This document shows, in pieces, positions 4,585 to 56,719 of a stretch of DNA of 64,000 nt. The position numbers and the translations under genes were made by a program. How positions within the stretch are numbered: the first letter of the stretch is position 1; the number at the start of each line of letters is the position of its first letter. The notes under the pieces are model-generated. The model did not search any database. It saw nothing but the letters and a program-made list of their open reading frames with translations, and was not told the origin of the DNA. Source of the stretch: an uncultured Gammaproteobacteria bacterium (GTDB lineage Bacteria; Patescibacteriota; Patescibacteriia; UBA11705); contig CAYPSS010000005.1 of NCBI GenBank assembly GCA_964413735.1, positions 4,398 to 68,397 on the forward strand, in the 5' to 3' direction.

Positions 4585-4624
4585 AAAAAAAGACGAATTT
4601 TCATTCCTCTTTTTTTATGGCTCG
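4585..4624. repeat. 40-bp direct repeat, copy 2
   Basis: Identical to 4353-4392. The two copies bracket the att-core copy at 4522-4543. Confidence 0.8.
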
Positions 4625-4740
4625 CTTGGAGGGACGCCTTTCGAACTTATGATTGGCGCAAGGCATTCCCTGTGCCAGAATTAGCTTTACAACAGATTAA
4701 CCACCTGTGCAGTTTAGCATAAGCTCTTAACTAACATCCT

Positions 4741-5292: not shown

Positions 5293-5312
5293 AAAACGGC
5301 TTAACGGCCGTT

Positions 5313-5810
5313 TTACTTTTTATAGGGATTTACAAAGGGACTGAAAGGTCTACCAAAATATAATGATAATTTATGACCGAGCCAGTGTCGCCCCAAATCG
5401 TTCAAACATTGTATTCTTTTGTCTTTATCAAGCACGCTTCTCGGCAATGATACTATTCTAGTAAAATCAACATAACTTGCTGGGAAAACACCTTCTTCTG
5501 GCAAGAAAAACCAATATCCATATTTTTGATCTGCCAATTGTGCAAGATCCACCTTTATTTGAGTTTGTTCAAGTTCTTCTACTGTGAGGACAGGGGCAAA
5601 AATTAAAAAATTGCGATTTTTGGGATTGTTAATATCGCAACTCTGGTTAAGAAGCATCATAGTCCGGCTCTGAACGTTGAATATGGACTTGGTTTCGGTT
5701 GCTCCGATTGGGTCAGGTGTAATTATAAAAGGAAGATCTTTTACTATATCACCCTGCAACCATTCATTTGTTGGAAGGTTGCTTGCATACATATAATTAC
5801 TACGTAGCAA
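5313..5810 (-). CDS. Hypothetical protein, last gene of the R-M/protease operon
   Basis: 165 aa with no recognisable motif. It overlaps the upstream 76-aa gene by 11 nt, so it is translationally coupled. Confidence 0.45.
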   Translation of the reverse strand: MLRSNYMYASNLPTNEWLQGDIVKDLPFIITPDPIGATETKSIFNVQSRTMMLLNQSCDINNPKNRNFLIFAPVLTVEELEQTQIKVDLAQLADQKYGYWFFLPEEGVFPASYVDFTRIVSLPRSVLDKDKRIQCLNDLGRHWLGHKLSLYFGRPFSPFVNPYKK

Positions 5811-6030
5811 GACCTAACTTTTTATAATAAGTATCCCAATCCTTAGGCGTTAAATCCTCCGGTTCTTTCTCGATTATTTCAGTCGCATAAACTTCACTGA
5901 TATCAGTAAAATGGACATTTGAGTATTGTTCTGTGGCAGTGAACTCTATGCCAGTTTGTTTAGCTTGAAAAACTTTTTTTTGAGTTTTTTCGTCTACTGG
6001 TTGAGCTTTGCAACTTGTTGAATATAACAT
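5800..6030 (-). CDS. Hypothetical small acidic protein (76 aa)
   Basis: Its stop lies 2 nt after the start of the downstream gene, and its start lies 1 nt after the SDH-protease gene stop. It is operonic. Confidence 0.4.
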   Translation of the reverse strand: MLYSTSCKAQPVDEKTQKKVFQAKQTGIEFTATEQYSNVHFTDISEVYATEIIEKEPEDLTPKDWDTYYKKLGLAT

Positions 6031-6031
6031 A

Positions 6032-6997
6032 TTATTCCCACTTATTATAGAAATTATGTATATTGAAATTAGGTAAAGGTGAATTACCGGGTAATTTCAT
6101 TACTTTATATTTCGAAACAAATTGGTCGGACAATTGTTCGCTCTGGATAATAGCTCTCGTTAAAGAGAAATCCTTTTCAACTTTGTTGCCAAGGAAATCA
6201 GCGGGGTTAAACTCATCATCGAGTTGTAAGATTTTTTTATAATGCATCATTAAATCGTTAATCAGCTTATCGTCTTTTGCATATTCGATTATGTCTCCAA
6301 AACCAATTTCATTTTTGGCTTCTTTTCGGTTGATTAAGTGTTCGTGAGAATATAATTTCTCTGTCAAATGATCGGTAATTTCCTTTAATTGTTTTTCTGT
6401 ATGATGATCTTGGTGTAATTTTAGCATTTGCAAAGACAATCTTCGTATCAGATGATGTGTTCTATTTATGGATCCGAGTATCTTTGGAGGTATGTGCTGG
6501 CTTAATTGATTTAGCACTTCTGTAAGAGAGTTTTGTTCAGCCAAGCCAATCTTTGACTTTGCAAACTCAATATAACCCAAAATATCTTCAATAGGTATTT
6601 GATCCTGTTTGTTTTCACCCATATTATATACACCTATTGGATCTATCGGCGAAAGCTGACTGTATGGCGTCATAATAATCCGGTCTGCCCCGAGGCATAT
6701 AAGGGTAGCGGCACTTAACGCCAAATGAGGAACAACAATTTCGAGTTCGTCGCAGTATTCCCTTATAAGATTAACTAATGGCCAAGGTGTATCTAAACGC
6801 CCTCCCTTACTGTAAAGAAATAGCGTAATCTTTTTTTGTTTTTTGATTTTTTGTAAGTGCTTATAAAAGATAGGCACTATATCCAATGCGATTTGAGTGT
6901 GAAAGTTCGGTTGCTTGTCTCCTGTGATATAAACAATAACCTTGCTTCCTCTCTCTTTTTCTAATTTTTTAATTAGATTTTCTATAATTTTTGACAT
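6032..6997 (-). CDS. SDH/S49-family ClpP-fold serine peptidase (SppA / phage-prohead-protease-like)
   Basis: 321 aa. The N-terminal ~140 aa carry the ClpP/S49 signature block 'YSKGGRLDTPWPLVNLIREYCDELEIVVPHLALSAATLICLGADRIIMTPYSQLSPIDP' (G-G..., a serine in an S-A-A-T-L context, then a '(A)D-x-I-x-M.P.S..PIDP' tail). This is as in Pfam SDH_sah / Peptidase_S49. A helical C-terminal extension of ~170 aa follows. Confidence 0.55.
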   Translation of the reverse strand: MSKIIENLIKKLEKERGSKVIVYITGDKQPNFHTQIALDIVPIFYKHLQKIKKQKKITLFLYSKGGRLDTPWPLVNLIREYCDELEIVVPHLALSAATLICLGADRIIMTPYSQLSPIDPIGVYNMGENKQDQIPIEDILGYIEFAKSKIGLAEQNSLTEVLNQLSQHIPPKILGSINRTHHLIRRLSLQMLKLHQDHHTEKQLKEITDHLTEKLYSHEHLINRKEAKNEIGFGDIIEYAKDDKLINDLMMHYKKILQLDDEFNPADFLGNKVEKDFSLTRAIIQSEQLSDQFVSKYKVMKLPGNSPLPNFNIHNFYNKWE

Positions 6998-7049
6998 ATT
7001 AGATTATTATATCCCTATATAATTATTATATTATAATGATAAAAAGACA

Positions 7050-8189
7050 TCAATCGCCAGCTTCGTCGTTTTCAAACTCCTCAAAGGAGCCGATTTTAGT
7101 GAAATCTATATCGTATTTTTTCTCTCCGACTTTGTAAATCACAACGCTGTCGACGCCTATTTCTTCCAGTTTTTCATAAGTGAGAAGCTCTCCTTCTTTT
7201 AAGTCGAAGATTTCCCTCAACAGCCACTTGCCAAGATCTGCGTTATGCTTGCTCATAAGCGCTTTGGAACCGTCTTGGCACACTTTTGCCTCCATCTTTT
7301 CTCCATTTGGCAAAAGCAATTCAAAATGAGTGTCTCTCGGAGGAAAGAAATCGGGGAAAGATCTGTGTAGCCACGCAGGGATAGGAATATAAACTTCGTT
7401 CGGATCTCTTGGGCGTCCGGATGCATTCCACTGATTAAGCCCGCTCTTTTCCGGAACATTCTTTTCACCGCCACGCATAGAATAAAGTGGAAGAAAAATA
7501 TGCGCCTGTTTCTTTATCGGTGCAAACTCTAATTTTTTAGCAACAGTAGCAAACATTCTTTCTAATTCAGAGAAAGGATCTTCCAGTATAGCTACTGACA
7601 AATCGAGAGCGACTTCTGGGGTTATAAATCTTTTATACAGGGTGCTTTTAGCAACATTAAAAGCATATTCATTGATGCCGTCGGTAAATGCTATTGTATT
7701 TCCGTTTGAAAGTTTTATGCGTGATATTTTATCAATCGCTATTCTGTCCATCGGAGTTTCATATACAAGTATGTTTTTTGGCTTTCTCGTGACGCAGTGA
7801 TAAATGATGTCGTTCAACCCAAACATTCTTTTGGTAGTATCTATTCTTTTATTGCGCATCTCTGCGATTTTTACGATCTTTTTTTCAGGATCAAGATGGC
7901 GGAATAAAGAATGCTCGCTGTTGAACTCGGCCACTTTCTGCATTGTGGCGCCGTTTTTTTCAAGAAATGTTTTTACGCCGATGCCGAGTTTGTCTTTTGA
8001 TGCATCTGCCGAACAGTCCGTGCGTGAAAGGTTCTCTGCATCAAACGCTTTGCAGAATAGATTTTCAGCAACCCTATAAGCAATATAAGGTTCATTGCTT
8101 TCTGAAAAAAGGCGTGAGAGCGAACCTATTGTTTCCAGCATCTTTGCGTAGTAGGTTTTGCTCGCTGTTTTTTGTGTTTCTATAAACAT
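7050..8189 (-). CDS. Putative Type II restriction endonuclease (partner of the adjacent C5-methyltransferase)
   Basis: 379 aa with no conserved-family motif that I can name. Its start is 2 nt downstream of the methyltransferase stop on the same strand, the classic M-R operon layout. Confidence 0.45.
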   Translation of the reverse strand: MFIETQKTASKTYYAKMLETIGSLSRLFSESNEPYIAYRVAENLFCKAFDAENLSRTDCSADASKDKLGIGVKTFLEKNGATMQKVAEFNSEHSLFRHLDPEKKIVKIAEMRNKRIDTTKRMFGLNDIIYHCVTRKPKNILVYETPMDRIAIDKISRIKLSNGNTIAFTDGINEYAFNVAKSTLYKRFITPEVALDLSVAILEDPFSELERMFATVAKKLEFAPIKKQAHIFLPLYSMRGGEKNVPEKSGLNQWNASGRPRDPNEVYIPIPAWLHRSFPDFFPPRDTHFELLLPNGEKMEAKVCQDGSKALMSKHNADLGKWLLREIFDLKEGELLTYEKLEEIGVDSVVIYKVGEKKYDIDFTKIGSFEEFENDEAGD

Positions 8190-8190
8190 A

Positions 8191-9144
8191 TTATGCTTGT
8201 ATAGCTTTCTTCATATTCACCGCAATGCGGTAAATGACCGGCACTGAAACCGAATTGCCGAATTGTTTATATAGCGCCGAGTCAGTAATGTTTTTAGGCA
8301 GTTTTATATTGGCAAACCCTTGCAATTTTGCGCATTCTTTTGGGGTTAATTTGCGGATGCCTTTTGCGTCCTTTATGATCGGAACGTTATGACCTCCCAT
8401 CCCCATATTCGCAGTAAGGGTCGGGCAAACTCCTTTTTTGTTTTCTCTAACATAAACCCTGCGCCACTGATAGACAGTGTTTTGGGATTTTATCTGTTCT
8501 TTCAGTTTATCGTATAACGGTTTGCCTTCATAGTAGTATTTTTCCGGGACGTCTTTTTCAAGAATATCTTTTATGCTTTTAGTAAGGGCGATTTTTTTTG
8601 GAAAGGAAAAAACATCATAGGATTTTTTCGACTTAAATCCAACAATATAAACACGCTCCCTGTTTTGAGGGACGTTGCCGTATTCCATTGTATTTAGTAT
8701 TTCAGTTTTGATGTGATAGCCCAGCTTTTCAAGCTCTGCTTTAATAACTTTGAAGGTGTTGCCTTTATCGTGAGAGTAAAGATTTTTTACATTTTCAAGC
8801 AAAAGTGCAGGAGGATTTTTTTCCTTCAAAATCCTGATAATATCCCAAAATAAGTTCCCACGGTTAGTATCTGAAAATCCTTTTCTATAACCTGCAATAG
8901 AAAATGGCTGACAAGGAAACCCTCCAAGAAGGACGCCGAACTTTTTAGGCAAATCGCTTGTCTTTACTTTTGTAATATCTGCAACGTGCAGTTTTGGTTC
9001 AGGAAAATTAAGATCGTATGTTATCTTGCAATTCGGTTCGAAATCATTTGCGTATAGCGTAGTGAAGCCGGCCTTCTCAAATCCTGCTCGAATACCGCCT
9101 ATTCCGGCGAAAAGATCAATGGTTGTTAAATCACTTTTTTGCAT
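8191..9144 (-). CDS. DNA (cytosine-5)-methyltransferase
   Basis: Motif I 'DLFAGIGGIRAGF', motif IV 'GGFPCQPFSIAG', motif VI 'ENVKNL' and motif X 'QFGNSVSVPVI' are all present. Confidence 0.9.
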   Translation of the reverse strand: MQKSDLTTIDLFAGIGGIRAGFEKAGFTTLYANDFEPNCKITYDLNFPEPKLHVADITKVKTSDLPKKFGVLLGGFPCQPFSIAGYRKGFSDTNRGNLFWDIIRILKEKNPPALLLENVKNLYSHDKGNTFKVIKAELEKLGYHIKTEILNTMEYGNVPQNRERVYIVGFKSKKSYDVFSFPKKIALTKSIKDILEKDVPEKYYYEGKPLYDKLKEQIKSQNTVYQWRRVYVRENKKGVCPTLTANMGMGGHNVPIIKDAKGIRKLTPKECAKLQGFANIKLPKNITDSALYKQFGNSVSVPVIYRIAVNMKKAIQA

Positions 9145-9447
9145 AATAAAAATTGGGTAAGTTTCGTGGTTATATTATACCTTGTTTAGGCCTGCATCGC
9201 AAGGCAAAATCTCATTGCAAAAAAGGCCTTGGTTTGTTATAATAATAGCGCTTACCCACAATCAATATAAATTATAACACGGGAAACGGGGTTCTGCCTC
9301 TCTTTGTCTGTTTGCGGCCAGAGATGGGGCAACAAACCTCCACAAACAGACACTCCCGTGTTTGCAACAGTGGGTAAGCAGGTTCTGCTGCCCCTTTTTT
9401 GTTTGTCTAAAAAGTCGGCGCAGTTTAATTATTAACTTATATAATTT

Positions 9448-10026
9448 ATGGCCGGCCTTTTCGCAATAATACTGCTTATAGCGTGTATTTTGCTCATCCT
9501 TGGGCTTATACAGCCCAAACTTGCCTTATACTGGGGCAAACACAAAAATCGTAAGCAAGTAGGAATAATTTACGGTTCACTCATCGCTGTATCCTTCATA
9601 GGCATCGGCATATTTGCACCTCCCGTTGAAAAAAAAGAATTGCCGAAAGAAGAAGAAAAACAACAAGTAGTTGATCAGCAAGTTCAAGTGTCCGTTGAAG
9701 ATAAACAGGAAGAACCTGAACAGATAAATCCAGAAGTAGAAAAGCTCGATGTGTGGGAGAAAATAATAATATCATTTGACGGGGGTTATTCCAAAAAAGA
9801 AATAAAAGAAAAAATGGATTTGGCAATGACCCTTTACGGGGTAGATCTTACTGATGAAAATTACAGCCGAACCGCAAGTTCGTTGATTTCTATGCGCCGG
9901 GAATATGGCTTCGAAGAAATGGAGATACTTAACTATGCAATATCTCTTTACACTCCAAAAGTTAAAATGACGTTGCCTGACGCAATCGGCATAGCAACTG
10001 CGGCTCTTGTGCAAGGAATAAAATAA
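9448..10026 (+). CDS. Hypothetical membrane-anchored protein
   Basis: 192 aa with two N-terminal TM helices, then a charged E/K/Q-rich linker and a C-terminal globular region. Confidence 0.45.
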   Translation: MAGLFAIILLIACILLILGLIQPKLALYWGKHKNRKQVGIIYGSLIAVSFIGIGIFAPPVEKKELPKEEEKQQVVDQQVQVSVEDKQEEPEQINPEVEKLDVWEKIIISFDGGYSKKEIKEKMDLAMTLYGVDLTDENYSRTASSLISMRREYGFEEMEILNYAISLYTPKVKMTLPDAIGIATAALVQGIK

Positions 10027-10101
10027 CAAAAACGCCGGCGAAAAGCCGGTTGTTTTTATACCCGATGAAAGGTATAATTATAGGCAAGAAGTGATGAAAC
10101 T

Positions 10102-10818
10102 ATGAAAGAAACAAGATCCTTTGCGCAGACACAGGAAAGATGGAAGCGCATTATCGAACACGACGTGTTCAAACACAATTTAGAGATTGTTAGGCAAGAT
10201 AAAGGCAAAATATCTTGGGCTGTTGCAGATACCCGAAAGAAACTAAATCTTTCTCCATATTGGGAGATGTTTTTTCTTCCTTTAAGTTTCGAATTAGGAT
10301 ACCCTATACCAAAAATCCGTCCGGCAGGTGCTTTGTATTTTAAGCCATTACTTGATCCAAAAACAGGGAAAATTATATACCCTGCGTTTATCTTTCCTGA
10401 AACCACAAAAAGAGATGTGTTGAGTTTTTATAAACGTTTTTGCAAAGTGAAGCGAGAAATAGGAAAAGAAGAAATACATCATCAAGGCAACTTGCCTTTA
10501 ATAAAAGCAGGAAAAGATATTATTACTCACAACTATTATTTTCAGGTTATACCGACCTCAAAGACAACACGGAAATCTATGTTAGAGGCATATTCAAATA
10601 TCTCAAAGTATTATGAGGCGTGCGGTCAAAAAGTCGTAAAAAGAAAATCGAGCAGACACGAAGAAGAATACCTTGCAAAGATGTTGTCCGAAGAAAAATA
10701 TACCTATTCTTATATAGCAAAAATTATTAACCAAAAAAGATCCAAGGATAACAGAATAGGCGTAGAAAATGTTTCATCTCTCATAAGGGGTGCAAAAAGA
10801 AAGCAAAAGAAACTCTAA
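10102..10818 (+). CDS. Hypothetical protein with a C-terminal HTH-like basic region (possible replication/regulatory protein of the element)
   Basis: 238 aa. The C-terminus '..YSYIAKIINQKRSKDNRIGVENVSSLIRGAKRKQKKL' resembles an HTH/DNA-binding tail. There is no firm family assignment. Confidence 0.4.
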   Translation: MKETRSFAQTQERWKRIIEHDVFKHNLEIVRQDKGKISWAVADTRKKLNLSPYWEMFFLPLSFELGYPIPKIRPAGALYFKPLLDPKTGKIIYPAFIFPETTKRDVLSFYKRFCKVKREIGKEEIHHQGNLPLIKAGKDIITHNYYFQVIPTSKTTRKSMLEAYSNISKYYEACGQKVVKRKSSRHEEEYLAKMLSEEKYTYSYIAKIINQKRSKDNRIGVENVSSLIRGAKRKQKKL

Positions 10819-10841
10819 AATGAACCCGCCAGAGGACTAAT

Positions 10842-11150
10842 TTGAACAATCAAAAAAATGATATGCTCATCACAGATAACGTGATGAGCTTTTTTATGAA
10901 AACAAAAATTGATGAAATTGAGTTTATTCCAGTAAAGCCCAAAAACGGCCTAATAGGTTTCGTTTCTTTTGTGCTTGATGAAAAGCTGTATTGCAGTTCT
11001 ATCGGCGTGCATACGAGGCCACAAGGCGGTATACGGCTTGTCTGGCCTCTGACAAGAACCGGAATGAAGGCAGTTTACCCGATTTCAAAGGAGCTATATT
11101 TTGAGACAGAAATTGCCGTAGCAGATAAAGTTCAAAGTTTTTTACAATAG
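10842..11150 (+). CDS. SpoVG-like protein
   Basis: 102 aa. The pattern 'IDEIEFIPVKPKNGLIGFVSFVLDEKLYCSSIGVHTRPQGGIRLVWPLTR...KAVYPISKE' parallels the SpoVG consensus (V.V.......GL.A.AS...D..F.V..I.V....GLFVAMPS.R...G...D.AHPI). Phage-borne SpoVG homologues are known. Confidence 0.4.
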   Translation: MNNQKNDMLITDNVMSFFMKTKIDEIEFIPVKPKNGLIGFVSFVLDEKLYCSSIGVHTRPQGGIRLVWPLTRTGMKAVYPISKELYFETEIAVADKVQSFLQ

Positions 11151-11405
11151 ACAGCCAAGACCGGCTTTTTAGTGGAGATCCGGGATAACAACTTAACCCT
11201 ACCGACAGTGCTTTACGCACGGGAGAGATAACTCGCTATGAAGGGCATAGCGGGGACAGATTGGCGGGCAGATCAATGTGGGAGCTACGCAGGCGTGCGT
11301 CTCCCGACCTAATCTGTTCGGCAGTTTTCTAACTTTAAGATTGTCTGCCTTACATAAGCTAATAATAGCTAAACAGGAAGTGTTTAGGGATCAAAACGCA
11401 TAAGT

Positions 11406-11618
11406 ATGACTATTGGTATTACAAAAAGTGAAAAAAATGTGCTGGGCGAGGAAAAGCCAAGAAACCACTATGATAGGCAATATCCGGCAGTAAGTTTTAG
11501 GATTGATCCAAAAACCAAGGAGATATTGCAATCAATAAAATCCGATCTTGGTAAAAGTTGGAACCAAACTTTCCTGCAACTTGCTCGTCTGTATAGCAAA
11601 AATCAAAAAGCTAAATAA
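11406..11618 (+). CDS. Small ribbon-helix-helix-like DNA-binding protein (candidate repressor or recombination directionality factor)
   Basis: 70 aa. 'AVSFRIDPKTKEILQSIKSDLGKSWNQTFLQLARLY' fits the beta-strand + two-helix CopG/Arc pattern. It lies just upstream of the integrase. Confidence 0.35.
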   Translation: MTIGITKSEKNVLGEEKPRNHYDRQYPAVSFRIDPKTKEILQSIKSDLGKSWNQTFLQLARLYSKNQKAK

Positions 11619-11633
11619 TTTTAATAAACGAAA

Positions 11634-11801
11634 ATGATCAGCCAAGCTCTAATACAAGAATTGAAGCAGATCCTCAAAGAAGAATACGGGGCTGATTTGA
11701 CTATGGAGCAAGTTTCAGAAATAGCGAACGGACAAGTCGCTTATTATCGCACGCTCGCTGAAATATACATTCGAGACAAACAAAAAATTGACAGTTCATA
11801 A
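11634..11801 (+). CDS. Small hypothetical protein (55 aa) absent from the ORF track (below its length cutoff)
   Basis: The uninterrupted reading ATG..TAA gives 'MISQALIQELKQILKEEYGADLTMEQVSEIANGQVAYYRTLAEIYIRDKQKIDSS'. It sits between the RHH gene and the integrase, with a TTGACA..TATAAT-like promoter for int immediately after it. Confidence 0.3.
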   Translation: MISQALIQELKQILKEEYGADLTMEQVSEIANGQVAYYRTLAEIYIRDKQKIDSS

Positions 11802-11858
11802 TCAAAATCTCTCCTTTAATTTAAGCAACTAATTTGATATAATTAACATAAGAAGTGT

Positions 11859-13481
11859 ATGAAACTACAAACACAACACAACCAAAAGCACTCTGTCATT
11901 TTGGCCAGAGTGTCGTCAAAAGAACAAGAAGAAACCGGATATTCTTTGCCAGCGCAGGAGAAATTGCTTCAAGATTATGCAGATAGAAAGCAGATGAACG
12001 TAAAAAAGGTTTTTTCGATAGCAGAGACAGCAAGCGGTTCAAAACAGCGTGAACAATTTTACGCTATGCTTGAATATGTCAAAAAACATAAAATCAACTG
12101 CATCCTTGTTGAGAAAGTAGACCGTCTGACAAGAAATATGCGTGATGCTCTCGTAGTCAATGAATGGATACAAGAAAATCCGAGCCACCAAGTCCATTTT
12201 GTGAAAAACAATCTTGTAGTAGACCAAAATACAAGATCCGACGATACTTTCAAATGGGACATCGAAGTTATTTTGGCAAAAAAGTATACTGCAAATCTTT
12301 CGGAAGAAGTAAAAAAAGGCCAAGAGGAAAAAATACAACAAGGCGGTTATCCTTCTCGTCCTCCTCTTGGATATAAGACAATCGGAGAAAAAGGCAGAAA
12401 GATGCACGTTATAAATCACGATATTGCGCCTTTAATCAGAAAGACCTTTGAATTGTATTCATCGGGTAATTATTCAGTAAAAGAATTAGTTAAAGTAATG
12501 AAGCGAGAGGGATTGCGAAACGAAAGCGGAAGCGAAGTTAAAAAAACTACAATGCACCGCCTTCTGACCAATCCATTTTACTACGGACAATTTAACTGGA
12601 ATGACAAGCTATGGGACGGCAAACACGAACCTATAATCACAAAGGAATTATTTGATCAGGTGAAAAGTAAACTCGAACGCAAAACTTCCAGTCCTACATA
12701 CAGAAAACATAATCCTGTTTTCAAGGCGGTTTTTCATTGCGGAGAATGTGGAAGCGTAATTAGCTGGGAAACACACAAAGGTCACTGGTATGGCTGTTGT
12801 AAGCATTACAAGCCCTGTTCTCAAAAAGGATCATTGCGGGAAGAAGATGTTGAAAAACAGCTTATGCCTCATTTTGATACGATTGCCCCGAAGAACGAAC
12901 GAGTTGTTAAGTGGCTCGAAAAAGCATTGAAGTCCGATCAAGCTGACGTCGTTGAAACCCACAACGCAAAAAAGAAAGAAATGAATGCCCAGATTGAAAG
13001 ATTGGACAGGCGTCTTGATGCAATGTATATGGACAAAATTGATCAGAAGATTGATTTGGATTATTACGAAAAGAAAAAACAGGAGTTTGAGGAGGAACGC
13101 AGTGCAATAAAAAGCGAACTCGCCAGATTGGATGACAGCAAAGCAGAATACTACGCAGTAGGAATTGCTATACACGAACTCGCACTTAAAGCGTGGAAGA
13201 TCTACAACAGCGAGAAAGCAACGATTGAAGAAAAGAGATTGCTTTTGAGCTATGTATTTTCGAACTCAACCATTAAAGAGCGAAAGTTAGCCATAAACTA
13301 CACTTTTGCCTTTGATTTTCTTCAAAATTGGATGCCGGCTGTAAATAAAACTTTCGAACCGGCAAAACTTGGCTTAACTAAAACAAAAAACACCTCTGAA
13401 AAAGAGATGTGTTCTGTTTGGCTCGGGGACAGGGATTCGAACCCCGATAGCCAGGACCAAAACCTGGAGTCCTACCATTAG
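11859..13481 (+). CDS. Large serine recombinase / serine integrase
   Basis: 540 aa. It has an N-terminal resolvase/invertase catalytic domain ('VILARVSSKEQEETGYSLPAQ', catalytic Ser), a recombinase domain, a zinc-ribbon Cys cluster (CGECGSV...CCKHYKPC) and a C-terminal coiled coil. The last ~20 codons are read from the complement of tRNA-Gln. Confidence 0.9.
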   Translation: MKLQTQHNQKHSVILARVSSKEQEETGYSLPAQEKLLQDYADRKQMNVKKVFSIAETASGSKQREQFYAMLEYVKKHKINCILVEKVDRLTRNMRDALVVNEWIQENPSHQVHFVKNNLVVDQNTRSDDTFKWDIEVILAKKYTANLSEEVKKGQEEKIQQGGYPSRPPLGYKTIGEKGRKMHVINHDIAPLIRKTFELYSSGNYSVKELVKVMKREGLRNESGSEVKKTTMHRLLTNPFYYGQFNWNDKLWDGKHEPIITKELFDQVKSKLERKTSSPTYRKHNPVFKAVFHCGECGSVISWETHKGHWYGCCKHYKPCSQKGSLREEDVEKQLMPHFDTIAPKNERVVKWLEKALKSDQADVVETHNAKKKEMNAQIERLDRRLDAMYMDKIDQKIDLDYYEKKKQEFEEERSAIKSELARLDDSKAEYYAVGIAIHELALKAWKIYNSEKATIEEKRLLLSYVFSNSTIKERKLAINYTFAFDFLQNWMPAVNKTFEPAKLGLTKTKNTSEKEMCSVWLGDRDSNPDSQDQNLESYH

Positions 13482-13492
13482 ACGATCCCCGA
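13419..13492 (-). tRNA. tRNA-Gln (anticodon UUG)
   Basis: The reverse complement folds as a cloverleaf. The acceptor stem is TCGGGGA/TCCCCGA. The D-arm is GTCT-AATGGTA-GGAC. The anticodon stem is CCAGG/CCTGG with loop TTTTGGT, giving anticodon TTG. The T-arm is CGGGG-TTCGAAT-CCCTG. The discriminator is G and CCA is encoded. Confidence 0.85.
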
Positions 13493-13535: not shown

Positions 13536-13660
13536 TGTCCACCGTAGCTTTAGCGAAGGTGGAGCTAAGTTCACCGTAGCTTTAGCGAAGGTGAAACGAT
13601 CCCTGCCTACTCGTCTCGCCACACGGACGAAGCGGACCAGCAGGCAGACCTGTCCGACAA
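13536..13660. repeat. GC-rich structured region flanking tRNA-Gln. It contains a tandem 22-nt repeat (caccgtagctttagcgaaggtg, two copies) and a hairpin element homologous to 54750-54797.
   Basis: Copies of the 22-mer lie at 13540-13561 and 13571-13592. Segment 13591-13645 (ccctgcctactcgtctcgccacacggacgaagcggaccagcaggcagac) is about 85% identical to the reverse complement of 54752-54797. Long-range pairing GGATCGT/ACGATCC encloses the whole block. Confidence 0.6.
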
Positions 13661-13755
13661 AGCATCAAGCGAAGGCGGGCCTGAATAATCAAAATTGTAT
13701 AACCTTAGACTATCATAGATAAATACATTCGTCAATATCAAACTGGTGATATTTT

Positions 13756-28470: not shown

Positions 28471-28848
28471 TCATAGCGCCCATGAAAACAAATACCCCCC
28501 CCCATTTCCTTGGCTGAAAAATAACATTATTTCCAAAAACAAAACAAAATAAATGTTATGGGTCAAGAAAAAAGTGTTGCTTTTATGAGTATTGAGTCCA
28601 TACTCCATCGCTTGGATCCACTGCCATTTCTTCACATATTGACGCAACACGAGATTATTTGGCTGTTGTCGATCATAAAAAAAAGCCGCCAATAAATGAT
28701 CCAAGTCAATTATAAATGCTCCGATTAAAACAAGTACTAGAAATTCCCAGCGCCAAATTTGTGATAAAAACGAAAATAATAACCACCAAAAGGTGGCCAC
28801 ATAAAAATGCCAAGCAATATGCTCATTAATAATTTTAATTATTTTCAT
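28471..28848 (-). CDS. Small membrane protein
   Basis: 125 aa with 3-4 TM helices. It overlaps the upstream NUDIX gene by 14 nt. Confidence 0.4.
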   Translation of the reverse strand: MKIIKIINEHIAWHFYVATFWWLLFSFLSQIWRWEFLVLVLIGAFIIDLDHLLAAFFYDRQQPNNLVLRQYVKKWQWIQAMEYGLNTHKSNTFFLTHNIYFVLFLEIMLFFSQGNGGGYLFSWAL

Positions 28849-32940: not shown

Positions 32941-33552
32941 ATGTTAAATTTAATTGTTCACCCCTCAGGAGAACACCCAATGAGTAAACCCGGAACCATT
33001 TATTACTTTGATGGAATCAATCGACGAATGGTCGCCGAAGATGTTTCTTCACAAACCGATCGTTTTCGTTTGAAGGCCATTAAATTCATGCATACTTTGC
33101 ATCCTTTAGCCTCGCTCATTCAAAGATTGTTTGACAATGAAAAAATTGATGCCCAACAGCGTGATGTTTTGTTTGTTTGGGTGGGAACATTTGCATTCAG
33201 GACTAACATTTCCGAATCCCTGGTGATTGAACAAGAGAAAGAATTCCACAGTCAAGAACCTACCACCATTATAGCAAATGAAATGAGTTATTGGCAGTCA
33301 ATGTCAGCCAAGGAAAGAGATTGGTGGGGACCTTACAATTTCCCGGAATATGCCCAGCGAATTCAGGAAGACTTTCCTCTGGATACCAGTAAAATTCTAA
33401 TTCTACACCCGAGTCAACGCCAGCAAATTCTGGAAGGACTTTCCGGTTTGGTCAATCAGCGCGCATCGATTTTGATTCAATGTCTGGCGCTGTGTTTCCG
33501 AATTGCCCGACTGGCGGAAAAACAAAATCAATCGCGCAAAGGCTTTTTCTAA
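32941..33552 (+). CDS. Hypothetical protein
   Basis: 203 aa with no recognised motif. Confidence 0.4.
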   Translation: MLNLIVHPSGEHPMSKPGTIYYFDGINRRMVAEDVSSQTDRFRLKAIKFMHTLHPLASLIQRLFDNEKIDAQQRDVLFVWVGTFAFRTNISESLVIEQEKEFHSQEPTTIIANEMSYWQSMSAKERDWWGPYNFPEYAQRIQEDFPLDTSKILILHPSQRQQILEGLSGLVNQRASILIQCLALCFRIARLAEKQNQSRKGFF

Positions 33553-51462: not shown

Positions 51463-51798
51463 TGCCACGTTAACAGCGCAGTGTTATACCAATTTTACTA
51501 TCAGGGATTAATATAAATAAAACAACCGGCTTCTACGCCGGCCTTTTTGTTATCTAGATCAGACAAAATAATCAAGCCGACGCTAACCGGTTATTATTAT
51601 TGTTTGATTGGATACCTCTGATTATCATATGATTTAATTATAGCACACTTTGAATAAAATGTCAAATAAAAAACCGATTGTATAACAATCGGTCAAATTA
51701 ATATCAGGCAAAAACGACTAACACAAAGAACCGTTCAAAATAATGATAAATAAAATCTGCGTAGCGAATAGGCAATCTTTCTTTTTTCTTTCGTCAGC
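51463..51798. repeat. Duplicated non-coding segment, copy A (upstream part of the NUDIX module). Includes two terminator-like hairpins.
   Basis: Near-identical to 54904-55096 plus 55430-55566 (for example 'cacgttaacagcgcagtgttataccaattttactatcagggattaatataaataaaacaaccggcttctacgccggcc', 'ccgattgtataacaatcggtcaaattaatatcaggcaaaaacgact.acacaaagaaccgttcaaaataatgataaataaaatctgcgtagcgaataggcaatctttcttttttctttcgtc'). Confidence 0.8.
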
Positions 51799-51926
51799 GT
51801 TTCATATTCGCCCTCTTGGTAAAGGATTTAACTCAAATCATTATCAGGATTAATTAGCAATGTTAACAAATTATTATATTTTTGTCAAACATAAAACAGA
51901 CCTTCGAAGATCTGTTTTAATGTATT

Positions 51927-52448
51927 TTACAAGTAAAAATATTTCACGATTTTTAATAAGTCACTCTTGGCTTTTTCACCGGCCTCTATCTTTTCCCTCA
52001 ATTTTTCCGGTGTTAGCCAATAATATTCAATAAAATCATCCGGGTTAAAATTCGGCGCTTCATCAGACTGAATCTCATAAATTTGCATAAAGGCGGAAAC
52101 TTGATTTTCATGCGGTATTAACTTACCTAATAATTTCCAAGAAACTTGATTAATATCAATATTTAATTCCTCAGCCGTTTCTCGCTCAAAAGTTGTCTGA
52201 TAATCCTCCCCACTTTCCACATGACCACCCACACTCATATCCAGACATAATGGATAAATCCTCTTATTCGCTGTACGACGCGGAATCCACAATTCGCCCT
52301 TAGAGTTTTTCACAAAAGCATTAATTACCCGAAAATTGGATAAACCTTCTGCATAAATCTCAGATCTCAATTTTTTTCCAATTACTTGATCATGTTCATT
52401 TACTAAATCTAGCCATTCATCTTGCATATAAAAAATTAGTAAAGGCAC
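51927..52448 (-). CDS. NUDIX hydrolase (copy A of a duplicated gene)
   Basis: It has the Nudix box 'GGHVESGEDYQTTFERETAEELNI'. It is about 95% identical to the ORF at 56219..56719. Confidence 0.8.
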   Translation of the reverse strand: MPLLIFYMQDEWLDLVNEHDQVIGKKLRSEIYAEGLSNFRVINAFVKNSKGELWIPRRTANKRIYPLCLDMSVGGHVESGEDYQTTFERETAEELNIDINQVSWKLLGKLIPHENQVSAFMQIYEIQSDEAPNFNPDDFIEYYWLTPEKLREKIEAGEKAKSDLLKIVKYFYL

Positions 52449-52539
52449 TTTGAATAAAAAACTTGCAAACTTATAAATTAATAATGGTGCGTTTATTTAA
52501 CGAAATCCGAACCTTTTTTGAACAAAACTAATGACTCGC

Positions 52540-52670
52540 TTCGCGCGCCAAACTGAACGATCGGGCGGGCAAAAAGGAAGGGAGTTTGGGGGAAGGAATT
52601 TTTGTTTGTTTTTGTTTTCCACTGCCGCCGAATTTCGTGCCAACGAAGTTGGCGCGCCGCCATCTTAAAT
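52540..52670. repeat. GC-rich inverted-repeat element (ttcgcgcgccaa ... ttggcgcgcc, with an inner GCCAAC-gaa-GTTGGC hairpin)
   Basis: Seen in the sequence. It is a marked GC island between NUDIX copy A and the 3' end of the 536-aa gene. Confidence 0.45.
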
Positions 52671-52694
52671 TACATTAACTCGTTAAACACAAAG

Positions 52695-54305
52695 CTATCC
52701 CAAAGCACTGATGGTCTTTTCAATTCTTTCTTGTAGTGTTCTGTCGTAATAAACATTAGCACCGTTAATTTCCATGAAATTTAATAATTTAGCAATTTTT
52801 TTGTCGGGTTCATAAATTCCTCTAGGTATTGGGACTTTCCTTTTGGTTTCTGACCTATCAGATTTTTCGAAATTTATATTTTCGATTCTATAACGACCTT
52901 CATAGTCATATCCTTCATCAAAACTTACCGTAAGTGATTCTCCACCAACATGGACGATTGTAAATGTGCCTTTTTCTTGACTATTCAAGGCTAATTGTGC
53001 AAGTTCCTTTTCACTTAGAGATGCAAGGTCAGCGCTCAAAGCCTTATTCGCGAGTTCTAAAGCATTTAACACTTGCTTCTTTTGTTCTGGTGTAAAAGAA
53101 TCAATTTGTTCTGAGAAATTTTCTAGTCTTTTTTCTTCCAAAGTATCTATCGCTGATTGGAGCGTTGCCTTCGTTTCATCTTTCCGGATGAGTTCAGGAT
53201 AATTTTCCGAGCGAAAATCAAATGACGCTAACCGAGCCCTCAGAAATCGTATAGCTCCCAATAAATAAGCTTGCGTTGCATCTTTAATTTCCTCAACCGT
53301 CATTGGTAGTGGCCAGCCCACTGCTTCCGCAGCTTCAACAGAAGCAAAAGTTTTGCCTTTTCCTTGCATTTCTCTCAAGGAAACAAACGATGTTCCAGTC
53401 CAAACCTTACGATCCTCAATAGCTTTTTGCAATTCTCCATCAACATCCTTCGCAACATGCTCTGCAAATTTATTCGGTCCTAGAATTTCGAAAAATGCCC
53501 TACAGCGGGGATTCATATCGATCGAACTATCATAAAAACCCTCTAATTCTAGTTTCAATTTTCGGACATCTGCTGTATCATCATTAGCAATACTAATTGC
53601 GTATTCTTTTCCAAATAAATCTCTAACCAATTCATAGTTCAATCTTTCCTGGTGGATAGCATCTTTAGCGAAATGCCAATCCCGGACCTTTACACCTCTA
53701 TAATCCTCTGTAACTCTCGGCTCAAGATAGCTTTTTACTTGAGCTAGAATGATATCACGATCCACACCTTCCACAGAGGAAGCTGTTCTTAAAAGTAGAT
53801 TCGTCTTAAATGATGATTGATCACCATCGCTGGTTGGTAAGTTTTTGACTATCTCCACAATTTCGCTTGAATGCCCGTGACCCGCCATTTCTTGAGCGAG
53901 TTGTTCTAACGCGCGCCTGAAATGCTCAAATGAATCGTTTGGCCGACTATCATAGTAAAAATAGGTGTCTGCTGCATATAGTGCAAACTCCTTAGCTTTA
54001 TTGGGATCGGTTTCATATAGCTGTGTAGCCTTTTCGGCAAATTCTGCATATAGTTCTGCGTATTCTTCCTCTTGTTTATAGTACAAACCAGATTGATACA
54101 GTTCGCTCAATACTTCGCCCCCTTCTTCATAAAATTTTTCGTTCTCTTCCCAATGTTTTCGTGCAAGATTTTCTAATCTTGCATTTATTTCCCCAACAAT
54201 AATTGCGCGCCTTTCAGATAATTCTATTTGTTCCGGCGTCATCATACCCTCGGCTTTTTTAATTTCTTTTTCGCTTGATTGATAGCCCTCTGGTGATTTT
54301 GGCAT
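52695..54305 (-). CDS. Orphan 536-aa protein of unknown function, conspicuously GC-richer than the surrounding genome
   Basis: Long uninterrupted ORF with codon structure and predicted mostly helical. It has no motif I can assign. It lies downstream of a decayed XRE-HTH gene and between the two copies of the duplicated NUDIX module. Confidence 0.55.
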   Translation of the reverse strand: MPKSPEGYQSSEKEIKKAEGMMTPEQIELSERRAIIVGEINARLENLARKHWEENEKFYEEGGEVLSELYQSGLYYKQEEEYAELYAEFAEKATQLYETDPNKAKEFALYAADTYFYYDSRPNDSFEHFRRALEQLAQEMAGHGHSSEIVEIVKNLPTSDGDQSSFKTNLLLRTASSVEGVDRDIILAQVKSYLEPRVTEDYRGVKVRDWHFAKDAIHQERLNYELVRDLFGKEYAISIANDDTADVRKLKLELEGFYDSSIDMNPRCRAFFEILGPNKFAEHVAKDVDGELQKAIEDRKVWTGTSFVSLREMQGKGKTFASVEAAEAVGWPLPMTVEEIKDATQAYLLGAIRFLRARLASFDFRSENYPELIRKDETKATLQSAIDTLEEKRLENFSEQIDSFTPEQKKQVLNALELANKALSADLASLSEKELAQLALNSQEKGTFTIVHVGGESLTVSFDEGYDYEGRYRIENINFEKSDRSETKRKVPIPRGIYEPDKKIAKLLNFMEINGANVYYDRTLQERIEKTISALG

Positions 54306-54418
54306 ATTTTCCTTCCCTTTTCTTATATGGCGTTCGCCAATTTCGAAAAGTTAAATGAAGTTAATAATTATTAACCAGTTTGATTACTTGTAGTTTACCC
54401 CCCCAACACTTTTTACAA

Positions 54419-54646
54419 TAGCCATAGTTATTTAACAAATCCTCTATGTTAACATTAAGCGCTTTAGCAATCTTTGCCATAGTTTGGACGCTTTACTTAT
54501 TCACTGTGCTGCTTTCGACCTTCATAAGCGTTGTGTATTTTATATCCGCTTTCTTGGTTAAATCGTCTTGCGTCAAGCCAAGTTTAGTGCGGAGTTTCTT
54601 AATGTTTTTGCTGATAATTTTTCCACTTGTTATATAAATAAAGTTT
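54419..54646 (-). pseudogene. XRE-family (Cro/C1-type) HTH regulator gene interrupted by an in-frame TAA and lacking an ATG start
   Basis: The minus-strand translation '..GKIISKNIKKLRTKLGLTQDDLTKKADIKYTTLMKVESSTVNK*SVQTMAKIAKALNVNIEDLLNNYG' follows the canonical XRE HTH pattern (..L..LGLTQ..LA.K.G.S..T...E.G...PS...L.KIAKAL.V..D.L). The stop replaces the residue before the conserved S/L-E-T-L block. The track ORF on the plus strand here (54446..54637) is spurious. Confidence 0.5.
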
Positions 54647-54749
54647 TAGCAGTATTATAGTATATGCGTTTGTTATCTGTATTTTAATATTACCAAATAA
54701 AATAAAATTAGACAAACAAAATTTCTGAAAGTTTAATTCTGATGCCCAA

Positions 54750-54797
54750 GAGAGCCTGTCTGCCGGTCCGCTTCGTCCGCGAAGCGAGACGAGCAGA
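54750..54797. repeat. GC-rich two-tier hairpin (CCTGTCTGC-cggtc-CGCTTCG-tccg-CGAAGCG-agacga-GCAGACAGG), homologous to 13591-13645 in reverse complement
   Basis: Perfect nested inverted repeats seen in the sequence. About 85% identity to the tRNA-Gln-flanking element. Confidence 0.6.
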
Positions 54798-54875
54798 CAG
54801 GGACTTCCTTCGCTTCACTCAGGATAAACTTTTCGTCCTATTATGTGTATTCCTATTATTATTCAATAATGGTGC

Positions 54876-54905
54876 CCAGGAGAGGACTCGAACCTGGAAC
54901 TCCAC
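54876..54905 (-). other. tRNA 3'-end-like fragment (CCA/discriminator/acceptor 3' strand/T-loop, no 5' half): candidate att remnant
   Basis: The plus strand 'tggtgcccaggagaggactcgaacc' is the reverse complement of a canonical tRNA 3' terminus (GGTTCGAGTCC TCTCC TGGGCA CCA). No matching acceptor 5' strand or anticodon arm follows. It abuts the left boundary of duplicated segment B. Confidence 0.5.
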
Positions 54906-55096
54906 GTTAACAGCGCAGTGTTATACCAATTTTACTATCAGGGATTAATATAAATAAAACAACCGGCTTCTACGCCGGCCTTTTGTTATCTAGATCAAAC
55001 AAAATAACCAAGCCGACGCTAACCGGTTATTATTATTATTTGATTTGATCACTCTGATTATCATATGATTGCATTATAGCATACTTTGAATAAAAT
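54904..55096. repeat. Duplicated non-coding segment, copy B (part 1)
   Basis: Matches 51463-51660. Confidence 0.8.
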
Positions 55097-55429
55097 GTCA
55101 AACAAAAAACATCCTCTCGTTGGCGGATGCTTTATTACTTTCATTCAATCACCAACTTTACGACGGTGACCAAGGGGGCGAAATGACAATGATGGGACCA
55201 ACCGATGATCTAATTTAGACTTTGTTTCTGGATCGACTAATTCATCGTCAATCGCCAAAGACAGCAAATGATCACCACAACGATAAAATCGTTTACGCTT
55301 ATCAGCCTGCAATGCTACTGGTGGATCATCTAATGGAGCACAAGAACAGCCCCGATGCTTAGACATTGTTATTCTCCGATAAAGAACCTACTAGTAAATT
55401 AACATAAATCATCATTAAAAAGCAAATTA
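55097..55429. mobile_element. ~330-bp insertion specific to copy B, flanked by an 11-bp direct repeat (aaacaaaaaac). It carries a small gene and its own terminator.
   Basis: Copy A is contiguous across this point ('tgtcaaataaaaaaccgattgtataacaatcgg'). Copy B has 'tgtcaaacaaaaaac|atcctctcg...ggaaacaaaaaac|cgactgtataacaatcgg'. Confidence 0.45.
55145..55366 (-). CDS. Small GC-rich hypothetical protein (73 aa) inside the copy-B insertion
   Basis: 'MSKHRGCSCAPLDDPPVALQADKRKRFYRCGDHLLSLAIDDELVDPETKSK...'. It is followed on the minus strand by the hairpin GCATCC..GGATG plus T6 (55100-55135), a terminator. It has a weak Trm112/zinc-ribbon-like look only. Confidence 0.35.
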   Translation of the reverse strand: MSKHRGCSCAPLDDPPVALQADKRKRFYRCGDHLLSLAIDDELVDPETKSKLDHRLVPSLSFRPLGHRRKVGD

Positions 55430-55566
55430 TCGGAAACAAAAAACCGACTGTATAACAATCGGTCAAATTAATATCAGGCAAAAACGACTGACACAAAGAA
55501 CCGTTCAAAATAATGATAAATAAAATCTGCGTAGCGAATAGGCAATCTTTCTTTTTTCTTTCGTCG
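55430..55566. repeat. Duplicated non-coding segment, copy B (part 2)
   Basis: Matches 51662-51798 with 1-2 substitutions. Confidence 0.8.
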
Positions 55567-55585
55567 CCGACGCATCAACACCATC

Positions 55586-56098
55586 TCAGATCTCCTTTGG
55601 TTGAGGTGATTTATTCCATAATTCATCAAACTGTTCTTGAGTCAAATAAATATCGGCTTTTTGCAATAGTTCATAACAAGGATACCAAAGTGAGCACATT
55701 AACAACATGTTCACATCTTCATTAATCATTCTCTTAACAGCTTTAAAAATTCGACGGTGGACATTAATTGAGACAAGTTGGTATTTCACAGCCATTGCAG
55801 TAGAATTGTTACTTGCAATAATGAATTGCACCTTACTAAGGGGTAAAGTAGTAATAATCATTTTTTGACGATCAAAGGTCCAAATAACCTGAATTTTTTG
55901 TTCAATATTTAAGCTACCCGATGAACCTTGAAATGTTCCAGTCTCTAAATTTCCACTACCAAGAGATAAAATTTGGACATTAACCACCTGAAATGGTTGA
56001 TCCATGTTATTTTGAATCCACAAAGTCTGAAAAGTATTGATTTTCATGCACCCGGAAAAAATCATTACAACCATCAATATTCCCAACTTAAATTTCAT
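55586..56098 (-). CDS. Putative lipoprotein, specific to copy B
   Basis: The start is taken at the internal Met, giving 'MKFKLGILMVVMIFSGC' (signal peptide + lipobox-like FSGC). The track ORF extends to 56170. Confidence 0.4.
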   Translation of the reverse strand: MKFKLGILMVVMIFSGCMKINTFQTLWIQNNMDQPFQVVNVQILSLGSGNLETGTFQGSSGSLNIEQKIQVIWTFDRQKMIITTLPLSKVQFIIASNNSTAMAVKYQLVSINVHRRIFKAVKRMINEDVNMLLMCSLWYPCYELLQKADIYLTQEQFDELWNKSPQPKEI

Positions 56099-56218
56099 AG
56101 TGCCTCCCATTGGGAAAGGACATAAAAAGAACTTGATGGTAGATATTAACACAATTCCAGGAAAAGTCAATAGTAAAAAATGGGCATTTAACCCATTTAA
56201 TTAGTATCTAAATTTTGA

Positions 56219-56719
56219 TTAAGAGTAAAAATATTTCACTATTTTCAATAAATCACTCTTGGCTTTTTCACCGGCCTCAATCTTTTCCCTCAATTGTTCC
56301 GGTGTTAACCAATAATATTCAATAAAATCATCCAGGTTAAAATTCGGCGCTTCATCAGACTGAATCTCATAAATTTGCATAAAGGCGGAAACTTGATTTT
56401 CATGCGGTATTAACTTACCTAATAATTTCCAAGAAACTTGATTAATATCAATATTTAATTCCTCAGCCGTTTCTCGCTCAAAAGTTGTCTGATAATTCTC
56501 ACCGCTTTCCACATGACCACCCACACTCATATCCAAACACAATGGATAAATTATTTTGTGTGCTGTGCGTCGGGGAATCCATAATTCACCCTTAGAATTT
56601 TTCACAAAAGCATTAATTACGCGAAAATTAGACAAACCTTCCGCATAAATCTCCGATCGTAATTTCTTCCCAATTACTTGGTCATTTTCATTAACCAAAT
56701 CAAGCCATTCGTCTTGCAT
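56219..56719 (-). CDS. NUDIX hydrolase (copy B)
   Basis: It has the Nudix box 'GGHVESGENYQTTFERETAEELNI'. It is near-identical to 51927..52448 (the copy-A ORF has a 7-aa longer N-terminus). Confidence 0.8.
   Translation of the reverse strand: MQDEWLDLVNENDQVIGKKLRSEIYAEGLSNFRVINAFVKNSKGELWIPRRTAHKIIYPLCLDMSVGGHVESGENYQTTFERETAEELNIDINQVSWKLLGKLIPHENQVSAFMQIYEIQSDEAPNFNLDDFIEYYWLTPEQLREKIEAGEKAKSDLLKIVKYFYS

Follow-up and report, generated by a model that had tools for sequence, protein, structure and literature searches.

An ORFan gene behind a decayed Cro/C1-type regulator in a tRNA-Asn-linked region of a Falkowbacteria-like bacterium: tentative reading as a mobile accessory cassette

In the 64-kb stretch of contig CAYPSS010000005.1 analysed here, called the window in the following, an open reading frame (ORF) of 536 codons lies on the minus strand at positions 52695-54305, downstream of the remnant of an XRE/Cro-C1 gene for a helix-turn-helix (HTH) regulator, and both reside in a variable region of about 5.6 kb that is bounded by copies of a Nudix hydrolase gene and of part of a tRNA-Asn gene. 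The best explanation, to which we adhere tentatively, is that of a mobile accessory cassette in a Falkowbacteria-like bacterium of the candidate phyla radiation (CPR), carrying a decayed repressor and an ORFan payload whose product would be a helical, non-enzymatic binding protein, and not that of an XRE-antitoxin/toxin pair. The ORF itself is a real and intact gene: it has a Shine-Dalgarno (SD) sequence rated good to strong (AAGGGAAGGA, 54319-54310), and residues 1-300 of its product are under purifying selection (omega 0.16-0.27 against three homologues, with dS saturated), the C-terminal part evolving much faster. The regulator, in turn, is dead in two genomic contexts in which the ORF is intact and is missing at further homologous loci, and the XRE-antitoxin/toxin reading is therefore disfavoured. 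The elements of the proposed unit are, in the direction of transcription (L numbers denote loci used for comparison):

54735-54824, minus strand: GC-rich palindromic hairpin resembling repetitive extragenic palindromic (REP) sequences, upstream of the XRE promoter; homology to L001 begins inside it, at 54801
54640-54730, minus strand: conserved promoter/operator region of the XRE gene (TTAAAA-17-TATACT in the window, TTGAGT-16-TATAAT in L003)
54428-54633, minus strand: XRE/Cro-C1 HTH pseudogene, from its HTH_3 match and the alignment with the intact gene of L003
54392-54418, minus strand: putative payload promoter, with TTGTAA (54418-54413), a 15-nt spacer ending in G7 (54404-54398) and TAAACT (54397-54392)
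54306-54391, minus strand: conserved leader of about 85 nt, with the hairpin TGGCG-AA-CGCCA (54339-54328) just before the SD sequence
52695-54305, minus strand: payload ORF of 536 codons, uninterrupted, from the ORF list and its SD sequence
52493-52690, minus strand: GC-rich structured 3′ element of about 170 nt, conserved downstream of every homologue
Product of the 536-codon ORF: residues 1-37, shared N-terminal module; about 40-440, helical and conserved in homologues; about 418-536, lineage-specific C-terminus

Regulator, promoter-like site and 3′ element

With its in-frame stop codon masked, the XRE remnant matches the Pfam family PF01381 (HTH_3) over the whole profile (positions 1-55 of 55, E 4.9e-10, 39.7 bits at a cut-off of 23). 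When judged against the intact 68-amino-acid (aa) orthologue in the groundwater contig L003, which matches HTH_3, HTH_19, HTH_26 and HTH_31, the 207-nt gene holds three lesions: the start codon is changed from ATG to ATA (54633-54631), the codon of Pro47 from CCA to TAA (54495-54493), and the original stop codon is gone as well, so that the protein is not translatable intact in the window. The XRE copy of L001 bears the same lesions. An earlier note on this DNA had described a same-strand Cro/C1-type gene without a start codon and with an in-frame TAA, a description with which both the HTH_3 match and the L003 alignment agree; rescue by an alternative genetic code was considered and rejected, as the other ORFs are normal in translation table 11 and the start codon is lost too. 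Intact versions with a complete XRE partner, for which the same note had proposed to search metagenomes, are found in the groundwater contigs L003-L007, where an intact XRE gene lies upstream of the payload. The pairing of regulator and payload thus recurs in one other lineage, but it is not seen at L002 and L089, where there is no XRE gene. Between the window and L003, the XRE gene and its promoter/operator region are conserved far better than the payload, the XRE proteins being about 88% identical (counted from the translations) as opposed to 44% for the payload.

The 120-nt spacer that separates regulator and payload shows conservation at six loci, among them the XRE-less L002 and L089. At the promoter-like site inside it, homologues have TTGCAA, a spacer of 16-18 nt with G9, and TAAACT or TAATCT; the length of the G-tract is seven in the window, L001 and L092, and nine in L002, L003, L088 and L089. 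Further downstream, the pairing of the leader hairpin is kept in homologues by compensatory changes, and the first 12 nt of the coding sequence are identical in six loci. Runs of at least seven G or C occur only twice in the window. The second one, a G9 tract on the minus strand (28495-28503), lies inside the ORF at 28471-28848, near the 3′ end of this small membrane-protein ORF, and another frame stays open after it, which points to a frameshift, to phase variation or to an indel made in assembly.

In the 3′ element, the first hairpin (GCCAAC-TTC-GTTGGC) covaries among homologues. On either side of the XRE-payload unit of L003, at least 106 nt of this element recur as a perfect inverted repeat (52-157 and 2459-2564), an arrangement also found in L004 and L005; the window has just a 25-nt pair with 76% complementarity. 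Searches of the GC-rich 5′ and 3′ elements and of the homologous loci against Rfam, at gathering as well as permissive thresholds, revealed no known RNA. A tmRNA or other tRNA-like gene in the 3′ element was rejected because ARAGORN and Rfam were negative, and an 18-mer of the element that recurs in two viral contigs was set aside: as the similarity does not extend, these matches are put down to chance.

The tRNA-Asn-linked region and the proposed mobility of the cassette

On the minus strand, the order of features is Nudix-A, a putative lipoprotein gene, a repeat, a 73-aa ORF, a strong promoter (TTGACA-17-TATAAT) and tRNA-Asn copy A, followed by the REP-like hairpin, XRE pseudogene, payload and 3′ element, and then by Nudix-B, the repeat, the same promoter and tRNA-Asn copy B. 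The features of the region other than the parts of the proposed unit are:

56219-56719, minus strand: Nudix hydrolase copy A, left arm of the bracketing duplication, 87-96% identical to copy B
54873-54944, minus strand: chimeric pseudo-tRNA-Asn(GTT), copy A, with the 5′ half of copy B and a foreign 3′ end ...CCTCTCCTGGGCACCA
51884-54801, minus strand: segment of 2.9 kb shared with L001 at 99.4% identity, both flanks being different
52480-52490, minus strand: 11-nt direct repeat GCACCATTATT, which recurs at 54865-54875, where the chimeric tRNA has its 3′ end
51927-52448, minus strand: Nudix hydrolase copy B, inside the segment shared with L001
51389-51507, minus strand: tRNA-Asn-like copy B, with intact acceptor (TCCCTGA/TCGGGGA), D and anticodon arms

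A duplication of about 1 kb, comprising the Nudix gene and the tRNA 5′ half, bounds the region, its two copies being 87-100% identical in four blocks. As the Nudix copies and an 83-nt perfect repeat that includes the tRNA-Asn 5′ half (51465-51547 and 54902-54984) flank the region, it is indeed repeat-bounded, as had been noted before. The gene downstream of the payload codes for a Nudix hydrolase, and its duplication is also seen independently of the cassette. Copy A differs from copy B by two minus-strand insertions (55111-55444 and 55566-56218), which contain ORFs of 73 aa (55145-55366) and of 194 aa (55586-56170), the latter with a lipoprotein-like signal (MKFKLGILMVVMIFSGC); neither of these two ORFs matched any family.

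Both tRNA copies depart from the canonical form. In copy A, the 3′ end is that of another tRNA (acceptor strand CCTGGGC, discriminator A), resulting in three acceptor-stem and two T-stem mismatches and a score of 23.7 bits at an Rfam threshold of 29; ARAGORN calls it a tRNA-Asn. In copy B, the acceptor stem of which is perfect, the variable loop and the T arm are replaced by a GC-rich hairpin of about 57 nt (fold z-score -3.45); neither ARAGORN nor Rfam calls copy B, which may be a pseudogene that has been disrupted or else a functional tRNA of unusual form. The 11-nt repeat GCACCATTATT may be the remnant of an old attachment (att) or target site, or it may be due to chance. The hairpin upstream of the XRE promoter belongs to a GC-rich family (CCTGyCTGCTCGTCTCGC...GCGGACCrGCAGrCAGG) in an otherwise 36% GC genome, with copies elsewhere in the window (13584-13686, with a related copy at 13600-13643), in L001 (6284-6370) and in L051, a Falkowbacteria genome (4718-4744). 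Because it is also found at 13600-13643 and in another Falkowbacteria genome, it is considered a REP-like dispersed repeat.

With respect to variability between strains, the homology to L001 sets in within the hairpin and takes in XRE pseudogene, payload, 3′ element and Nudix-B; in L001, this segment is flanked by dnaX upstream and GC-rich sequence downstream. L095 is 99% identical to the window as far as 51187 and then diverges, L093 and L094 end at 51146, and L096 ends at about 56774, the breaks of these contigs coinciding with the repeats. The contigs bearing members of the payload family are all short (1.1-2.6 kb) and terminate in GC-rich elements, which is expected if the flanks are repeated or strain-variable.

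No recombinase is encoded in the variable region (ORFs of 51.2-56.8 kb), and neither DDE, HUH, tyrosine nor serine transposase domains were detected, the model of the 536-aa protein being all-alpha and without match. Of the features by which tRNA-linked integrative islands are recognised, repeats of the tRNA and variable presence and context are found here, but there is no integrase inside. Two further candidates were rejected, namely a novel transposase, because there is no catalytic fold or domain and the perfect inverted repeat is found in the L003 lineage and not in the window, and a restriction-modification (R-M) controller module, because methylase and nuclease domains are absent at 51-57 kb and R-M genes reside only at 7050-9144.

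The nearest recombinase, a large serine recombinase (11859-13481), is part of another island. This integrated element of about 9 kb (4386-13432) lies in tRNA-Gln(ttg) (13419-13492, minus strand) and has at its boundaries two direct copies of 12 nt from the tRNA 3′ end (TGGCTCGGGGAC, 4386-4397 and 13421-13432). Besides the recombinase it contains a C5 cytosine methylase (8191-9144), an NgoFVII-like restriction enzyme (7050-8189) and an SDH/ClpP-like protease (6032-6997), and no other ORFs of the window are as atypical in codon usage as those of this element. Two GC-rich stretches of this island (0.57-0.61; 10998-11329 and 9280-9330) match no Rfam family at the gathering threshold.

Composition, product and family of the 536-aa protein

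The earlier note had also claimed that the ORF is GC-richer than its background and differs from it in codon usage. Only the second part stands: with a G + C content of 0.389, the ORF is inside the range of the 47 window ORFs of at least 150 aa (mean 0.369, sd 0.029), about ten of which are higher, and its GC3 of 0.296 is within the range as well but below the average of 0.339 (sd 0.044). Synonymous codon choice, in turn, is clearly atypical, with 11 CTA codons where 1.5 are expected, 18 instead of 5 AGA and AGG codons, 17 instead of 5 GCA codons, and A at 0.387 of third positions as compared to 0.273 in core genes. When the island at 4.4-13.4 kb is excluded, the ORF ties with the ORF at 32941-33552 as the most extreme of the window by mean log-likelihood. 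This compositional pointer hints at a foreign origin. The proposed horizontal acquisition of the ORF is supported by codon usage, strain variability, the different context in L001, the chimeric tRNA and the absence of relatives from GTDB, but not by its G + C content.

The predicted protein has a mass of 61 kDa, an isoelectric point of 4.95 and a grand average of hydropathy of -0.64, and with a maximum 19-residue Kyte-Doolittle hydrophobicity of 0.87 neither a transmembrane segment nor a signal peptide was found in it. Two AlphaFold2 models reached mean predicted local distance difference test (pLDDT) values of 57 and then 67, the better one being almost wholly helical with pLDDT 80-94 at residues 40-200, apart from a small C-terminal beta region of low confidence. 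According to these models the product is predicted to be soluble, acidic and mostly alpha-helical (solenoid-like). The structure search that had been suggested for finding a remote homologue gave no meaningful match: in Foldseek comparisons of the models with PDB (carried out twice) and BFVD only generic helical-repeat matches (ARM, HEAT, TPR and designed repeats) with template modelling (TM) scores of at most 0.24 were obtained, the best of them in PDB being designed and ARM repeat proteins, and nothing useful in BFVD. In line with the earlier statement that no motif could be placed, the ORF matched nothing above noise in Pfam, NCBIfam, PADLOC and PHROGs; no family of PADLOC-DB v2 was found at E <= 1 for the ORF and two neighbouring small ORFs, and no catalytic, ATPase, nuclease or protease signature in the protein. 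Homologues and proteins having only the N-terminal motif likewise gave noise only against the domain libraries, and sequence-profile searches of PDB with the family and with the N-terminal motif yielded no credible match.

A search of 5.8 billion proteins returned three clusters, comprising a 99% copy and two relatives at 48% and 44% identity, and when all of 1.84 billion representatives were scanned with the family profile by HMMER, 16 matches were obtained, about five of which are true homologues, some of them fragments; one metagenome scan brought three further loci. There is no relative in IMG/VR, and none of the 185,579 species represented in GTDB by one genome each has any relative either. 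Judging from these searches, the family appears to be a previously undescribed one that is confined to a few groundwater-type ultra-small (CPR) bacteria. The window itself is chromosomal, as it carries genes for DnaE, threonyl-tRNA synthetase, CTP synthase and pyruvate kinase, and since its DnaE is 58-64% identical to DnaE of Candidatus Falkowbacteria and other Parcubacteria metagenome-assembled genomes, the host is assigned by sequence to the CPR/Patescibacteria, as a Falkowbacteria-like bacterium.

Within the family, the homology of P0003 to the window protein ends at about residue 417, the last 120 residues or so being unrelated; in P0004, the N-terminal 35 residues are joined straight to a region homologous to residues from about 238 onward, residues 35-237 or so being missing; and P0014 has the first helical domain alone. 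By these alignments, the architecture is mosaic, with the C-terminus swapped between homologues. The first 35 residues or so of the 536-aa protein (consensus MPKSPEGYQPSxEEIKKAExMMTPEQxxLSxxRE) are portable beyond the family: ten further proteins of 68-311 aa are otherwise unrelated and have only this stretch in common. The motif is shared by P0007-P0017 and was also found at two metagenome loci (L091, L092). It is always placed at the N-terminus or within about a dozen residues of it, and in P0010 it occurs twice in tandem. No match to Pfam families or solved structures was obtained with this N-terminal module, and a profile search in a word-indexed database gave three tiny matches only. The domain pattern points to a docking function, by which the carrier proteins would be targeted, exported or assembled through binding to one partner in common.

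The small proteins with the N-terminal module are encoded in ordinary CPR chromosome, near tRNAs, FtsZ/FtsA, GyrA and a DUF8128 protein. DUF8128 proteins are found near members of the N-motif family on two unrelated contigs (L001 38-2566 and L101 5536-6705); in L001 the domain is fused to a DUF87/TrwB-like ATPase, and L101 ends in a gene resembling TrbC/type IV secretion system pilin. This neighbourhood may be a coincidence or a lead to the partner machinery.

Competing explanations and known systems

In the favoured reading, a small non-autonomous cassette would consist of the REP-like hairpin, a promoter with the gene of a 68-aa XRE autorepressor, the poly-G promoter-like site with the leader hairpin, the payload and the 3′ element of about 170 nt. 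Its site would be a tRNA-Asn-linked, strain-variable recombination hotspot, and the cassette would have moved between genomic contexts; as no recombinase is present in the 5.6-kb region, this would need enzymes acting in trans or homologous exchange at the repeats. The ancestral XRE protein probably repressed the unit, as the behaviour of its family suggests, and with the XRE gene dead in the lineage of the window the payload would be left under its own promoter-like site alone, itself presumably weakened by the change in the -35 hexamer and the shortening of the tract from G9 to G7, which leaves a 15-nt spacer. The product most likely binds other macromolecules rather than acting as an enzyme, and the N-terminal module would, from the architecture of its carriers, serve to dock the variable proteins of a family to a partner that they share.

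Several points speak against this reading. The poly-G promoter matches the consensus at 8 of 12 positions, which is under the scan threshold of 9 of 12, so that it was not picked up by the scan, and one G7 run is about what chance provides in 64 kb (some 0.8 expected, as estimated from the G frequency, where two runs of at least seven are observed). XRE control is not family-wide, as seen from L002 and L089, and the cassette has neither a recombinase nor a clear target-site duplication by which it would be defined as a mobile element. Part of the tandem Nudix-tRNA duplication could be an artefact of metagenome assembly. The AlphaFold2 model is of medium confidence only and unreliable at the C-terminus, and the suggested roles as binding adaptor and in docking are drawn solely from absent enzymatic signatures and from domain architecture.

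Alternatively, the cassette might be a decaying remnant in the process of being lost, with a dead XRE gene and a degraded promoter, the ORF being intact since the decay is recent. We regard this as unlikely, albeit less so than the other alternatives. The three XRE lesions fit such a course, as do the TTGTAA/G7 site of the window and L001 (15 nt) when compared to the TTGCAA/G9 site of homologues (16-18 nt) and the non-canonical state of both flanking tRNA copies. The five differences by which the ORF copies of the window and L001 diverge (three non-synonymous and two synonymous) are too few for statistical power, and no constraint is visible at the depth of these 99.4% identical copies. However, the 1,611-nt ORF has neither a stop codon nor a frameshift in either copy, as opposed to three lesions in a 207-nt XRE gene, its N-terminal 300 residues are under family-wide purifying selection, and SD sequence and leader are intact.

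A second alternative is the defence or toxin module that the earlier note had in mind with its term effector/defence gene: an abortive-infection, toxin or anti-phage effector held in check by the XRE protein and derepressed upon loss of the latter. That an XRE gene followed by a large protein without identified family recurs in L003-L007, that the region is strain-variable, tRNA-linked and atypical in codon usage, and that the same window has a genuine defence island with R-M genes and a serine recombinase at tRNA-Gln would all agree with such a role. However, PADLOC, Pfam, NCBIfam and PHROG searches gave no match, the protein has no nuclease, ATPase, protease or transmembrane signature, its structural matches do not exceed a TM score of 0.24, with none in BFVD, and no relative is found in viral contigs. 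Moreover, a regulator that is dead in two independent contexts with the ORF intact is hard to square with an XRE-neutralised toxin, as are L002 and L089, which lack it altogether. As to a type II toxin-antitoxin system in particular, the partner belongs to no toxin family known to Pfam, NCBIfam or PADLOC, and an antitoxin is not kept wherever the putative toxin is intact (window, L001, L002, L089). The assignment of the earlier note is thus not borne out, and we consider a defence or toxin module improbable.

About equally improbable, in our view, is a phase-variable and polymorphic host-interaction protein, in which the N-terminal module would serve for export or targeting as a non-classical signal, expression would be turned on and off by the poly-G tract, and the swapped C-termini would be a means to vary specificity, as would suit an episymbiotic CPR cell. 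The conservation of the extreme N-terminus down to the nucleotide level and its joining to unrelated C-termini would fit this, and so would the C-terminal replacement and internal deletion variants and a G-tract that differs between lineages (7 versus 9) and is one of only two such runs in 64 kb. However, the protein lacks a signal peptide as well as transmembrane segments and a cell-wall anchor, the window has no secretion system linked to the gene, the promoter assignment is weak, and no member of the family has a known toxin or adhesin domain. The more far-reaching idea that the N-terminal module and the poly-G leader together make up an undescribed CPR-specific system, with swappable C-terminal payloads, a common docking or export machinery and homopolymeric phase variation, is a speculative one to which we assign a lower probability still.

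XRE/Cro-C1-led two-gene accessory modules are known from mobile elements, e.g., in prophage immunity regions and in toxin-antitoxin pairs with XRE antitoxins. Like these, the window has a small HTH_3 gene upstream of a larger accessory gene on the same strand, a conserved promoter/operator and a variable tRNA-linked site. Unlike in these modules, the partner has no known toxin, exclusion or ImmA-type protease domain, a 120-nt spacer with a promoter-like site of its own separates the two genes, and the XRE gene is a pseudogene here and missing at some homologous loci, which implies that the partner does not depend on it.

With respect to the site, the tycheposon islands of Prochlorococcus target tRNA genes and show partial-tRNA repeats and degenerate element remnants (bioRxiv 10.1101/2020.12.28.424599). 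Similarly, the cargo in the window adjoins a tRNA gene, full and partial tRNA copies bracket the inserted DNA, the presence of the cargo varies at the strain level, and the remnants are without an integrase. In contrast to tycheposon-type islands, it is the tRNA 5′ half together with about 1 kb upstream, including the Nudix gene, that is duplicated here, and not a short 3′ att repeat; the 5.6-kb variable region has no integrase, and neither tRNA copy is canonical.

Conserved N-terminal trafficking domains combined with variable C-termini are found in polymorphic toxin and effector families in the classification of Zhang and Aravind. The N-terminal module with its unrelated C-termini, and the swaps and deletions among close relatives of the window protein, resemble this layout. 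However, no member has a recognised toxin domain at its C-terminus, neither an adjacent immunity gene nor a link to a secretion system is seen, and the module, which comprises only about 35 residues, is unlike any trafficking domain described. In contingency loci, in turn, promoter spacers are known to contain homopolymeric tracts, as in porA and opc of Neisseria, with which the window has in common a G7-G9 tract between -35-like and -10-like hexamers whose length differs between lineages, but from which it differs in that the promoter is putative and weakly matches the consensus and that the host is an uncultured CPR bacterium.

Genomes of CPR/Patescibacteria are small and contain many unannotated genes; ORFans are the rule in them, and the variation of their accessory repertoire is poorly understood. 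Against this background, ORFan cassettes headed by a regulator gene in variable regions linked to tRNAs are objects of a familiar kind, while the protein family itself is undescribed. The main yield of the present analysis is a negative one for the idea of a defence or toxin gene, together with the correction of the claim on G + C content, and serves triage rather than surprise. Beyond this, the locus provides a dissectable example of a very small cassette without a recombinase, in which a regulator and an ORFan payload lie between structured GC-rich ends, and which has been relocated and has lost its repressor. Its most testable leads are the N-terminal module and the poly-G leader, the former being a testable handle on the binding partners of these ORFans. 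If the system built around the N-terminal module were real, it would be a candidate toolkit for the interaction of episymbiotic ultra-small bacteria with their hosts.

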